A stretch of 64,000 nt of DNA, from assembly GCF_003018255.1 (NCBI RefSeq), contig NZ_CP027440.1. One strand, 5' to 3'. Position 1 is the stretch's first letter; every line of letters begins with the position of its first letter. The notes beneath the pieces are model-generated. The model searched no databases and had not been told where the DNA came from. It saw nothing but the letters and a program-made list of their open reading frames with translations. Below, one piece after another: positions 53,138 through 58,584 of the stretch. The position numbers and the translations under genes are program-made. Source of the stretch: Escherichia coli. Lineage in GTDB: Bacteria; Pseudomonadota; Gammaproteobacteria; Enterobacterales; Enterobacteriaceae.

Positions 53138-54496
<1,359 letters not shown>

Positions 54497-54503
54497 TTCG
54501 ACA

Positions 54504-56129
54504 TCAACCCTGCCCTTCAGGGGTGGGGTTACCTTGCTTATCCTCTGTAAACTCCTTTCTGAGCATCACATAATCGAAAACATCATGGTTTGCATCCACA
54601 ACCCGTGAGTCTCCTTTATAGTGTGCAATCACTTCCTCCAGCGTTTTCGGTTGTTCCGGCTTTGTTACCCCCATCCACGCATTAATCAGGTAATTATTGT
54701 AAGCTGTGGAAAAGATGTTGTTTTCCGTTGTGCGATCCACGCCATCCCCAAGAACGGGGCTATACCAGATAAACATCGGGACATGATATGCCTGCTGGCT
54801 GGCCTCCCTGCCTCCATGAAAATAGACGTTCTTCTTCGTAGGGTCACGTTCCAGGCCGTGGTCGGCAAAATACATGACCGAGGCGCGGCGATCTTTTAAT
54901 AATTCAAAAACCTGACCTAGCAAACTATCTGTGTAATGAATGGAGTTGTCATAGCAGGCATCCTGATCGTCCTGCGGTTGAAACACGGCGCTGGATTGCG
55001 GATAGGCGCTACAAGCCGGTTCATGGCTTCCATTTAAATGAAGAACAATCAGTTTCTTTTGCTGCGTATTTTGCTGTAATGCTTGCGATAAATGCGGCAA
55101 CAACAATTCATCAAATCCTCTGACATAAACTGTTTCCATGGCGCGCATGGCGATACTGGTAACTGCTGTACCATTCTGCCGAAAAGCGGATTGCGAGCTT
55201 AGCCAGAAAGTCTGAAATCCTGCTTGATTAGCCATATTAATAATGTTGTCCGGGTAATTATGAATGTCATGACTCAAAACGGAATCAGCAGTTAAAGAAA
55301 GGGGAACCGACAGCGCAGTGTAAGGTGCACCGCTTATTGCTTGATTAAACAGTTTGATCTGTTTTCTTTGTGCTTCGACTTGCGGTGTCGTAGAGCGTGT
55401 ATATCCATACAAAGACATATTGTCGACGCGTACAGACTCCCCCACAATCAACACGTAGGTATCAATACCTGTATCCCTGACTGATAATTGAAAATACGGC
55501 ACCGTGTTTGCAATTGAGAGTAATCTTTGATGCTCTTTCGCTGCTAAAGCAAAATAATTGAGATTGAAAAACGGTGTATAGGTAGCAAATCGCGACGCTA
55601 GTATATATGGACTGAACGCTTTTTTATTTTTTGCATCTTTATAAGCAAATTGACAAGCGGAAAATAAACTGCCCGAAATGACAATCAGCAATAATATTCC
55701 TGTCACTTTTTTCGTCGGCAAGGAAACATCATATTTTATTATTACTGCCAAAAAAAGAAGGGATAAAAAGGCAAAAGCACATAGATAAGGGATATACATC
55801 CCCAGCATTTTGACAACTTCATCCGGATCACTCTGCAGCACACTAATCGCAAATCCATCATTGAAAGTTGTACCAAAGGTACACCATGAATAGAGGCTAA
55901 TACTCATGTCTGCCGCTGTCAGTAACACAAATGGTGCGGCAACAAGCAGGCGAAGCGGAAGGGATGATATACGTTTAACAACCAGGATGGTCAGAACGAA
56001 GAACAGCAATCGCTGAACCATATGCGCTCCGGAAGAGGCGACTAAGTTCGTAATACCAAAAACAATAACACAAAGATACAACAACCAATGAGATTTAAAA
56101 CTTCTAACAAATTTGTTGAATACTGTCAT
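54504..56129 (-). CDS. yhbX: putative phosphoethanolamine transferase (sulfatase superfamily, EptA/OpgE-like)
   Basis: ORF track 54504..56162; ATG at 56129 gives MTVFNKFVRSFKSHWLL; N-terminal TM helices then a sulfatase-like domain; convergent with argG across a 7-nt gap. Confidence 0.85.
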   Translation of the reverse strand: MTVFNKFVRSFKSHWLLYLCVIVFGITNLVASSGAHMVQRLLFFVLTILVVKRISSLPLRLLVAAPFVLLTAADMSISLYSWCTFGTTFNDGFAISVLQSDPDEVVKMLGMYIPYLCAFAFLSLLFLAVIIKYDVSLPTKKVTGILLLIVISGSLFSACQFAYKDAKNKKAFSPYILASRFATYTPFFNLNYFALAAKEHQRLLSIANTVPYFQLSVRDTGIDTYVLIVGESVRVDNMSLYGYTRSTTPQVEAQRKQIKLFNQAISGAPYTALSVPLSLTADSVLSHDIHNYPDNIINMANQAGFQTFWLSSQSAFRQNGTAVTSIAMRAMETVYVRGFDELLLPHLSQALQQNTQQKKLIVLHLNGSHEPACSAYPQSSAVFQPQDDQDACYDNSIHYTDSLLGQVFELLKDRRASVMYFADHGLERDPTKKNVYFHGGREASQQAYHVPMFIWYSPVLGDGVDRTTENNIFSTAYNNYLINAWMGVTKPEQPKTLEEVIAHYKGDSRVVDANHDVFDYVMLRKEFTEDKQGNPTPEGQG

Positions 56130-56544
56130 CCAGAAATCCAAGTTCACAACCAATATAAACAATTATCAACAATGTTCAATTTTATATCAGACATGTTTTT
56201 CAACTCTGATCCATATCAGACCGAAACACTGTTAGTTTTTTCTTTTTAAATGATGCGGCCATTGTTCTCAGTAATTAAATAACATTATCAATGCGTCTCT
56301 AAACATTACGCAGAACGTAGCCATCAGTAGTTATACTGACAGGAGCAGGATGGTTTATCGAGAAGTAAACATATCCGTATTCGTACCGGAACTGGAGTTG
56401 ACACAATAAAGTGCCAATTATGTCAGCAGAAGGGAAAAGTTTATAACTAAGGCGTACCGATACCATCGTTTCAAAGTACCAGCTACGAGTAAAGCAACTG
56501 GACGAGATACAGATACCTGACAACCATTCCTCAGACCAGGACCA

Positions 56545-56577
56545 AAACGAAAAAAGACGCTTTTCAGCGTCTCTTTT
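56545..56577 (-). terminator. rho-independent terminator of the secG-leuU transcript
   Basis: Plus strand aaaacgaaaaaagacgcttttcagcgtct; on the minus strand agacgct/agcgtct stem followed by a T-run. Confidence 0.8.
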
Positions 56578-56585
56578 CTGGAATT

Positions 56586-56672
56586 TGGTACCGAGGACGG
56601 GACTTGAACCCGTAAGCCCTATTGGGCACTACCACCTCAAGGTAGCGTGTCTACCAATTCCACCACCTCGGC
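56586..56672 (-). tRNA. leuU: tRNA-Leu (GAG anticodon), 87 nt
   Basis: Reverse complement reads GCCGAGGTGGTGGAATTGGTAGACACGCTACCTTGAGGTGGTAGTGCCCAATAGGGCTTACGGGTTCAAGTCCCGTCCTCGGTACCA. Confidence 0.95.
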
Positions 56673-57202: not shown

Positions 57203-57232
57203 AAAAAGGCGACAATCGCCGCCTTTTTAGCC
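57203..57232 (-). terminator. hairpin plus U-run 3' of glmM
   Basis: Plus strand aaaaaaggcgacaatcgccgcctttt located just downstream (minus sense) of the glmM stop. Confidence 0.55.
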
Positions 57233-57246
57233 AGTTATTTATCGTT

Positions 57247-58584
57247 TTAAACGGCTTTTACTGCATCGGCGATGCGGTGTGCAAATTCAGTCACCTGCGC
57301 TTCGTCTTCGCCTTCCACCATCACGCGAATTAACGGTTCGGTGCCGGATTTACGCAACAGCACACGTCCACGGCTACCCAGCGCAGCTTCAACTTCTGCG
57401 GTCACAGCTTTGACTGACTCATGCTCCAGCGGATCGCCGCTGCCTGCTGTGTAACGCACGTTAACCAGAATCTGCGGGAACATTTTCATGCCGCTGCAAA
57501 GGTCGTGCAGGCTCATATGGTTACGCGCCATCGCCGCCAGCACCTGCAAGCCAGCAACAATGCCGTCACCGGTAGTGGTTTTATCCAGCAGGATCACATG
57601 ACCGGAGTTCTCTGCACCGATACGCCAGCCTTTCTCCTGCATTTTTTCCAGTACGTAGCGGTCACCCACTTTCGCGCGCGCAAATGGAATACCTAACTGT
57701 TTCAGCGCCAGTTCAAGCCCCATGTTGCTCATCAATGTACCCACAGCACCACCACGCAGCTGGCCCTGACGAAGACCTTCACGCGCGATGATATACATGA
57801 TCTGATCGCCATCGACTTTATTGCCTTCATGGTCAACCATAATCACGCGATCGCCGTCGCCGTCGAAGGCAATACCGAGATCCGCTTTTTCAGCCAGCAC
57901 ACGAGCCTGGAGCGCGCGAACGTCGGTAGCCCCCACTTCGGCATTGATGTTTACACCGTTCGGCTCACAACCGATAGCGATAACGTTCGCCCCCAGTTCG
58001 CGCAGCACGTTCGGCGCGATGTGATAAGTCGCACCGTTTGCACAATCCACCACAATCTTCAGTTCACTGAGGCTAAGTTCGTTCGGGAACGTGGCTTTGC
58101 AAAACTCGATATAGCGACCCGCAGCATCAACGATACGGCTGGCTTTACCCAGTTCTGCCGAATCAACGCAGCTGATCTCTTTTTCCATTTCCGCTTCGAT
58201 GGCCTCTTCTACCGCATCCGGTAGTTTGGTGCCGTCGATAGAGAAGAATTTAATGCCGTTATCGTAGAATGGGTTATGCGATGCAGAAATTACAATTCCA
58301 GCCTCTGCGCGGAAGGTACGCGTCAGATAAGCCACGGCCGGTGTTGGCATCGGGCCAGTGAAGAGCGCGGAAAGACCGGCTGCCGCAAGCCCCGCTTCCA
58401 GTGCTGACTCCAGCATATAGCCAGAAATACGCGTGTCTTTACCAATAATAATCTTACGGGAGCCGTGGCGCGCCAGCACTTTACCCGCGGCCCAACCCAG
58501 CTTAAGCACAAAATCAGGGGTGATCGGCGCATCCCCTACACGACCACGAATCCCATCGGTACCGAAATATTTACGATTACTCAT
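57247..58584 (-). CDS. glmM: phosphoglucosamine mutase
   Basis: 445-aa [20 protein letters not shown] with the active-site Ser in the SASHNP motif. Confidence 0.96.

Follow-up and report, generated by a model that had tools for sequence, protein, structure and literature searches.

Evidence for how transcription ends downstream of the Escherichia coli leuU gene came from a study of the secG-leuU operon in strain K-12, which showed that secG-leuU transcripts end after a Rho-independent terminator (Mohanty & Kushner, Nucleic Acids Res 2008, PMC2241853). 3′ ends past the terminator were recovered in 9 of 15 wild-type clones and in 13 of 14 rne-1 clones, and RNase E and RNase G were found to remove the terminator by cleavage in the AAUU just after the CCA (PMC2241853). 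Rho termination in untranslated and horizontally acquired DNA was described in a later, genome-scale study (Adams et al., eLife 2021, PMC7815308). The Rho scores in that study were derived from DirectRNA-seq with and without bicyclomycin (BCM) using 800-nt windows, and the positions of the reported regions are therefore approximate. A third study described FNR sites that are masked by H-NS; yhbX is among the genes with an FNR peak only in Δhns ΔstpA cells, and among those whose expression responds to O2 only in such cells (Myers et al., PLoS Genet 2013, PMC3688515). These studies bear on a single stretch of DNA, the spacer between yhbX and leuU, each component of which has largely been reported already in genome-scale or targeted studies of K-12. 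What is added here is the assignment of the published signals to specific sequence elements, together with a three-cassette population structure for the locus.

The window analyzed here is a 64,000-nt stretch of E. coli chromosomal DNA (contig NZ_CP027440.1), in which the local gene order is argG (plus strand, 53153-54496), yhbX (minus strand, 54504-56129), leuU (minus strand, 56586-56672), secG and glmM (both minus strand). leuU encodes tRNA-Leu(GAG), as called by ARAGORN and by a 52.8-bit match to the Rfam tRNA family; it is the last gene of the secG-leuU operon and is invariant in the eight strains compared. yhbX encodes a 541-aa membrane protein of the phosphoethanolamine-transferase family. 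Counted from the annotated yhbX ATG at 56129, the spacer occupies 56130-56585 and is 456 nt long. The first-pass annotation had described a gene-free spacer of 420 bp with its left edge at 56163; the spacer is indeed gene-free, but the edge has to be moved. The longest yhbX open reading frame starts at a TTG at 56162, the source of the earlier edge, whereas both RefSeq and the curated K-12 record place the start at ATG 56129, and the E. fergusonii YhbX orthologue aligns from this methionine. The description of the spacer as unusually long for the region is upheld, since it exceeds every other intergenic gap in the surrounding 40 kb (about 39 in all), the runner-up measuring 347 nt. No features are annotated between yhbX and leuU in NC_000913.3 or in the PGAP records, and a scan of the spacer against Rfam 15 in a permissive E-value mode matched only the neighboring tRNA. 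Strain 104, isolated from a chicken, matches the spacer at 100% identity.

The reading that best accounts for these and the following observations, with a probability of roughly 0.7, is that the spacer is ordinary non-coding DNA in three parts: the leuU terminator, an untranslated filler segment and the yhbX promoter. All of this three-part composite except the terminator belongs to a strain-variable yhbX cassette.

The part adjoining leuU (56544-56585, minus strand) consists of the leuU 3′ trailer and the Rho-independent terminator, as delimited by a terminator scan, RNA folding and a 42-nt match across cassette types. The CCA is followed by AAUU (56582-56585), a hairpin (56549-56578) and a U-tract that extends to 56544, in agreement with the first-pass placement of a terminator at the leuU end of the spacer. 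The scan identified a 13-pair stem, a 4-nt GAAA loop and the tail UUUUUUCGUUUU, and the predicted fold has a free energy of −23.9 kcal/mol (z = −5.9). Hence, the transcription unit ends in a GC-containing stem-loop followed by a U-tract, as for an intrinsic terminator. This is the same element as the K-12 secG-leuU terminator (PMC2241853): the AAUU, the 13-bp stem, the GAAA loop and the U-tract are all present, and nothing differs. The sequence is nearly identical to K-12 over the aligned columns, with one variable position (56581) across eight strains, and segment 56544-56585 is thus already characterized experimentally in K-12. The hairpin also scores as a terminator on the plus strand. By this account, the first 42 nt after leuU would end the highly expressed secG-leuU operon, and RNase E and RNase G would trim them during tRNA maturation.

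The remaining 414 nt of the spacer behave differently in the population. A set of 5426 complete E. coli genomes was searched, with the cassette counted as present where at least 80% of the spacer was matched. Some part of the spacer was matched in 5425 of the 5426 genomes, and at least 80% of it in 5168; these 5168 copies are 95-100% identical, and they are 450-458 nt long in a sample. In the remaining genomes, the match is limited to the last 42 nt (56544-56585). Two other cassettes were found in its place. One, in 237 genomes, is an unrelated cassette of 1.2 kb that encodes a 317-aa protein of HTH/XRE type; the other, in nine genomes, carries a yhbX homologue of 69% identity with an unrelated 230-nt upstream region. 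The cassette of the nine genomes was identified as the E. fergusonii allele: an E. fergusonii genome with the same secG-leuU-yhbX-argG synteny has a spacer 100% identical to theirs, and the protein cluster is named E. fergusonii. The 42-nt terminator segment is the only similarity of the spacer to the HTH-type and E. fergusonii-type loci. When the window is compared with E. fergusonii, similarity holds at 96% from ftsH to exactly 56544, is lost over 56075-56543, and resumes inside yhbX. An identical spacer throughout E. coli, the outcome that the first-pass annotation had set against its own suggestions, was not observed in the literal sense, since 95% of genomes carry the spacer at 95-100% identity and the others lack it.

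On the left, the cassette boundary falls within the final two codons of argG. The replaceable unit thus spans 54495-56543 and carries the last argG codons and terminator, yhbX and 414 nt of spacer; in other words, yhbX and the 414 nt can be replaced as a cassette, with the argG stop and the end of the terminator U-tract as its limits. The GC content of the cassette is 30-41%, as compared with about 50% in the flanks, such that variable presence among strains coincides with atypical base composition, as expected of an island. Parallels with tRNA-adjacent genomic islands extend to the position of the argG-leuU slot beside a tRNA gene, its low GC and variable content, and cargo from a family, that of yhbX, with members in integrase-bearing islands elsewhere. 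The slot differs from such islands in having no integrase or att repeats, in having its boundary past the terminator and not in the tRNA, and in the small size of its cassettes (1.2-2.1 kb). The first-pass suggestion that the locus is a tRNA-adjacent integration target is therefore only partly sustained: the slot is strain-variable and holds three cassettes, but there is no integrase or att repeat, and the junction falls after the terminator. Its accompanying remark that no integrase or direct repeats were visible is borne out. A search of the 64 kb for a second copy of the leuU 3′ end, allowing up to three mismatches, found none, and neither did a search for an integrase reading frame or remnant at leuU using the list of open reading frames, Pfam and tblastn. 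No integrase, att repeat or remnant is present at leuU, and both cassette junctions match the limits of core functional elements. The most economical interpretation is that cassettes are swapped by homologous recombination through argG and leuU-secG, as an allelic replacement, and not by site-specific integration.

Alternatively, the distal spacer could derive from a mobile element, or from a former cargo gene, that integrated beside leuU and then decayed, leaving for example a degraded integrase or att region. The low GC and the three cassettes of the variable slot are consistent with such an origin, as are the island contexts in which yhbX relatives are found elsewhere: a YhbX relative in an Enterobacteriaceae metagenome-assembled genome (MAG) lies beside a P4-type integrase and a tRNA-Phe, and one in Leminorella lies beside dndB and a YfjJ-type gene. 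The contig scan that found these two contexts found no others, and it missed E. coli and the gene-bearing E. fergusonii, such that absences from it are uninformative; the list of YhbX homologues was saturated by E. coli entries of 99-100% identity and is uninformative on other species, and a context look-up with the exact SecG sequence returned one E. coli-type context only. We consider a decayed element improbable, since no protein remnant was detected by tblastn or Pfam, the tRNA 3′ end is not repeated, the junction lies past the terminator and outside the tRNA, and there is no similarity to phages or true plasmids. In addition, the E. fergusonii yhbX occupies the same position, consistent with homologous recombination via the flanking core genes.

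Evidence that the opposite end of the spacer contains the yhbX promoter came from comparison with E. fergusonii. The proximal 100 nt align between E. coli and E. fergusonii with a score of 9, compared with −10.9 ± 4.8 for shuffled sequences, and none of 1000 shuffles reached this score; the scores of the −230 to −100 segment and of the distal segment against E. fergusonii are random. Three blocks are conserved: a palindrome, the sequence TATAAAAT, and GTYGATAWTT. The palindrome, CTGATatggATCAG (56206-56219, minus strand), is a candidate FNR site that matches 8 of 10 positions of TTGAT-N4-ATCAA, with the full TGAT/ATCA core but without the outer T/A of the FNR consensus. Its E. fergusonii counterpart is TGATatagATCA, and in both species the palindrome lies about 75 nt upstream of the ATG. 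It is intact in seven of eight E. coli strains and mutated in the eighth, and the chance expectation for TGAT-N4-ATCA in 414 nt is about 0.007-0.02. The second block, TATAAAAT (56179-56186, minus strand), contains a candidate −10 element, TAAAAT (56184-56179), whose spacing is kept in E. fergusonii: the distance from the palindrome center to the first base of TAAAAT is 28.5 nt in both species, and the 20 nt between palindrome and TAAAAT are unrelated. If TAAAAT is the −10 element and transcription starts near 56171, as predicted, the palindrome would be centered near −41.5. A site near −41.5 corresponds to the class II geometry of promoters of the FNR/CRP family.

Other promoter candidates are present in the same region. 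Two overlapping matches to the sigma70 consensus (56152-56190, minus strand), CTGATA-17-GATAAT and TTGAAC-16-TATATT, are alternative candidates for the yhbX promoter, but the number of such matches is not above the expectation from shuffled sequences, and the −35 of TTGAAC-16-TATATT is polymorphic in K-12 and ETEC6335. Depending on which candidate is used, the predicted yhbX 5′ UTR (56130-56171, minus strand) would be about 25-42 nt long. SMRT-Cappable-seq data contain no start entry for yhbX, and inspection by eye for PhoP and PmrA boxes revealed no convincing match.

Published ChIP and expression data are consistent with control of this promoter by FNR under H-NS silencing. An FNR ChIP-chip peak at yhbX is found only in Δhns ΔstpA cells, where the signal rises significantly from 0.42 to 0.70 (Table S7, PMC3688515), and wild-type cells have no FNR peak at yhbX (PMC3688515). 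Similarly, yhbX has a +O2/−O2 ratio of 0.46, corresponding to about 2.2-fold anaerobic induction, only in Δhns ΔstpA cells (Table S11, PMC3688515). An anaerobic sigma70 ChIP-seq peak at U00096.2 position 3319596, about window position 56090 (PMC3688515), is centered about 80 nt downstream of the predicted yhbX start. A prefix search of Table S3 (PMC3688515) for an H-NS ChIP-chip peak coordinate in the range 3319000-3320199 returned none. We infer that the FNR effect in Δhns ΔstpA cells acts through the palindrome at 56206-56219, and the yhbX promoter is probably FNR-responsive. Like the H-NS-silenced anaerobic promoters of Myers et al. (PMC3688515), the yhbX region is AT-rich and strain-variable and has a TGAT-N4-ATCA sequence whose distance from a −10-like element is that of class II sites. 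It differs from those H-NS-masked promoters in that its FNR site and start are predictions, the outer T/A of the consensus is missing, the prefix search returned no H-NS peak coordinate, and the published expression effect is a response to O2. In the proposed mechanism, the last ~95 nt of the spacer (56130-56225) would be the yhbX promoter, with the FNR-type palindrome acting from about 41.5 bp upstream of a predicted start past TAAAAT, and H-NS/StpA-dependent silencing would keep the promoter off in wild-type cells. The first-pass proposal that the spacer holds the yhbX promoter and 5′ UTR can be retained for these ~95 nt only, which contain the palindrome and the −10-like element and to which the published FNR and sigma70 ChIP signals are assigned.

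Between promoter and terminator lies a distal segment of about 320 nt (56226-56543) that is untranslated, 55-68% A+T, and specific to the E. coli-type cassette, with no homologue detected elsewhere; its alignment to the E. fergusonii spacer is no better than chance. A distant blastn comparison of the spacer with phage and plasmid DNA matched only chromosomes mislabelled as plasmids, six-frame fragments of the spacer gave nothing below E = 0.05 against Pfam, and tblastn of the HTH protein, the P4-type integrase, YhbX and the island neighbors onto the spacer gave no match. The distal segment has no similarity to the rest of the 64-kb window, and no direct or inverted repeats of note were found in the spacer. 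In a comparison of eight diverse strains, 5.8% of distal-segment sites are variable. This is half the value at third codon positions of yhbX (10.9%; p = 0.013) and threefold the 2.0% at first and second positions, and it is indistinguishable from the 5.3% of the secG-glmM spacer. Such diversity is that of intergenic DNA under the usual constraint; within the spacer, strains also differ by indels of 1, 2 and 6 bp. Two larger insertions are also on record: a database protein (P0124) turns out to be the spacer read into the end of an IS1 at about 56360, and in a published MG1655 strain, a cat cassette serving as a linked marker is inserted at about 56440. Since the IS1 insertion and the cat cassette both sit within the spacer, the distal segment tolerates disruption.

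Evidence for Rho termination within the spacer came from the data of Adams et al., after transfer of the published positions to the window through the K-12 alignment. A minus-strand Rho region at about 56228 (K-12 3321712) has a Rho score of 5.0 (p = 6e-73), with 63870 reads upstream, 114 downstream, and 552 downstream in the presence of BCM (PMC7815308). A plus-strand region at about 56259 (K-12 3321743) has a Rho score of 2.9 (p = 2e-5), with 199 reads upstream, 22 downstream, and 76 downstream with BCM (PMC7815308); the transcript that stops there is a low-level one, antisense to the 5′ end of yhbX. Both regions are classed as “orphan” in Supplementary file 2 of that study (PMC7815308). The base composition is consistent with Rho loading upstream of each. 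On the minus strand, a stretch with more C than G (56300-56460; C/G 1.3-1.5 in 78-nt sliding composition) lies 5′ of the published region and is a candidate rut-like loading zone for leuU read-through; on the plus strand, RNA from 56040-56240 has a C/G of 2.0-3.2 ahead of the Rho region. Thus, C-rich, G-poor untranslated RNA is found upstream of the stop region on both strands.

These features resemble Rho termination in untranslated or horizontally acquired DNA (PMC7815308) in the orphan BCM-sensitive regions on both strands, the upstream C>G tracts and the untranslated RNA. They differ from the Rho-dependent terminators of that study (PMC7815308) in that the spacer regions do not have precisely mapped 3′ ends, Term-seq in three growth conditions listing none between K-12 positions 3321500 and 3322071 (PMC7815308 Supplementary file 1), and in that the rut zone is a candidate only. 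From its C>G composition, the distal DNA would serve as a Rho-loading zone, and Rho can load there because no ribosomes cover its RNA. In the proposed mechanism, ribosome-free RNA in the ~320-nt filler would let Rho load and stop both leftover leuU read-through and the low-level antisense RNA leaving the yhbX 5′ region. While the minus-strand signal is in keeping with this mechanism, it may partly reflect BCM-induced de-repression of yhbX itself, and termination of read-through is inseparable from yhbX de-repression in these data because the windows are 800 nt long and most reads in the upstream window come from the tRNA.

The same Rho signal could be read as evidence that the whole spacer is a long regulated yhbX leader, transcribed from a far-upstream start (a stress promoter or leuU read-through) and containing a Rho-dependent attenuator that would gate yhbX. 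In favor of this reading, the minus-strand Rho region is found a short distance upstream of the core promoter, BCM has a 5-fold effect on yhbX reads (PMC7815308), and the minus-strand RNA has its C>G tract at 56300-56460. A far-upstream stress promoter might correspond to an RpoH-holoenzyme SELEX peak at about 56444, but this signal (3.2) is close to the cut-off, and the TTGAAA-like motif at that position varies among strains. A long leader is unlikely given that the E. fergusonii allele does without the distal segment, no conserved structure was found, and the conserved promoter elements are all proximal.

We return to the three-part composite, with its filler segment. The distal 320 nt may serve some purpose, as opposed to being inert DNA carried in with yhbX, and we infer that they are passive buffer DNA in which Rho acts. 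Less probable than the long leader or the decayed element is a more specialized role, in which the distal 320 nt would have come with the cassette as a dedicated conditional attenuator or insulator, or would give rise to condition-specific RNA unseen in standard cultures.

More doubtful still is the possibility that the spacer encodes, on one strand or the other, a small regulatory RNA that has escaped annotation; examples would be a plus-strand transcript from about 56430 to the bidirectional terminator, or an RNA derived from the leuU 3′ trailer. The terminator hairpin does score on the plus strand, and a weak RpoH-holoenzyme SELEX signal lies within the spacer. A plus-strand TTGACA hexamer is present at 56398-56403, but it is not accompanied by an acceptable −10. 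For the minus strand, the fold z-score is −3.6 with the terminator and −1.8 without it; the plus-strand value without the terminator is −1.0. Rfam matches other than the tRNA are below threshold, with the best E-value at least 0.3, and all of them (STnc50, isrK and MIR8008) overlap the terminator. Moreover, the diversity is typical of intergenic DNA with indels present, and both the cat cassette and the IS1 insertion interrupt the middle of the spacer. Mapping of transcript ends, the check proposed in the first-pass annotation, is available from the three-condition Term-seq data (PMC7815308), in which no 3′ end is listed in the spacer on either strand beyond the tRNA end. With no Rfam family match, no discrete 3′ end and no fold signal beyond the terminator, the small RNA that the annotation had suggested finds no support.

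The weakest alternative, that the 74-codon frame or another short spacer frame encodes a small protein, can be set aside with little hesitation. In its favor, the frame is open for 99 codons, pieces of it have been annotated as hypothetical proteins by a few gene callers, and a 6-bp deletion found in one strain preserves the reading frame. However, it is open from inside the tRNA and terminator and starts at a TTG that lacks a Shine-Dalgarno sequence; in a search of 5.8 billion proteins, the matches were limited to sporadic E. coli self-calls; the distribution of variable sites over codon positions (9/1/6) shows no excess at third positions; there is no Pfam match; and the curated K-12 record does not annotate it. 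The frame itself (56299-56523, minus strand, TTG start) is present as the first-pass annotation had reported it; judged by the self-calls, the codon-position pattern and Pfam, it is not a gene, and it was rejected as coding for want of homologues, third-position excess and a Shine-Dalgarno sequence. A “70% identical” match to the 74-aa frame, P0124, was likewise rejected as the read into the IS1 end.

The length of the gap is accounted for by a terminator together with acquired filler DNA and a promoter that is kept silent; this explanation matters little beyond tidy annotation. If the distal segment were a dedicated attenuator, Rho loading would decide whether secG-leuU read-through or stress-promoter transcripts reach yhbX, and expression of an envelope-modifying enzyme would be coupled to translation or stress status. 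The analysis also gives a concrete candidate FNR site for the published ChIP signal at yhbX. A three-allele slot that ends exactly at the leuU terminator should be useful to those who use this site as a “neutral” insertion locus, and the map of the slot should be useful for studying the control of yhbX, an uncharacterized gene of the phosphoethanolamine-transferase family.

Purifying selection on yhbX (window 54504-56129) is visibly weaker than on its neighbours; across the same eight E. coli strains, 2.0% of codon positions 1 and 2 are variable in yhbX versus 0.5% in glmM. None of the named phosphoethanolamine-transferase families in NCBIfam has a cut-off that the yhbX product reaches. Relatives with 65-67% identity to yhbX are found in island contexts at two loci outside the window (L004, 3908-7213, and L005, 703-6517). 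One relative, from an Enterobacteriaceae metagenome-assembled genome, adjoins a P4-type integrase and tRNA-Phe, and the other, from Leminorella grimontii, adjoins dndB, a PAPS-reductase-domain gene and a YagK/YfjJ-type gene. Absences in the peptide-pattern scans of genome contigs for YhbX should be taken with care: these scans recovered no E. coli or E. fergusonii representatives, though E. fergusonii genomes encode YhbX. The explanation is either that yhbX is missing from the representative genomes or that they are overlooked by the scan.

At its 3' end, yhbX converges with argG, with stop codons just 7 nt apart (window 54497-54545 region), and the hairpin of the argG terminator (ccctgcccttcaggggtgggg) sits within the 3' coding end of yhbX. 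Published Term-seq data place the argG 3' end at K-12 position 3320017, antisense to yhbX, and a published Rho region lies beside it at 3320019. The argG/yhbX pair has been listed as an "excludon" candidate (PMC12288877).

A SAM_alpha riboswitch match on the minus strand of the glmM-secG spacer (window 57206-57262) is most likely spurious. Its Rfam score of 24.5 bits (E = 0.005) is below the gathering score of 36, and it overlaps a terminator-like hairpin of glmM at 57208-57220. Myers et al. (PMC3688515) reported wild-type FNR ChIP peaks inside leuU/secG (K-12 U00096.2 positions 3320105 and 3320479; window ~56597), with poor motif scores and expression that did not depend on FNR. These peaks are probably a ChIP artefact of high transcription rather than a genuine site.

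The interval between argG and leuU is variable among E. coli genomes. In 237 of 5426, yhbX and its spacer are swapped for a 1.2-kb cassette, exemplified by strain Ec40743 (L002, 5015-5968, at the position equivalent to window 54497-56543). Its 317-aa product carries an HTH_19/XRE motif at the N-terminus, and its C-terminal part is uncharacterised; an NCBIfam search gave no match, and PADLOC matches were weak (candidate defence family PDC-M64C, E = 1.8e-4). One strain carries an IS1 insertion within this cassette. For the yhbX-leuU spacer itself, one database "protein" (P0124) consists of the spacer frame joined to an IS1 terminal inverted repeat (window ~56360), and at least one sequenced sample therefore carries IS1 in mid-spacer.

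Nine E. coli genomes instead contain an E. fergusonii-type yhbX cassette (L003, 4131-6000; L016, 3620-5596), whose YhbX shares 69% amino acid identity with E. coli YhbX. Because the upstream spacer of this cassette in the nine genomes is 100% identical to that of one E. fergusonii genome, the sequence comparison implies that the whole cassette was exchanged between the species recently.
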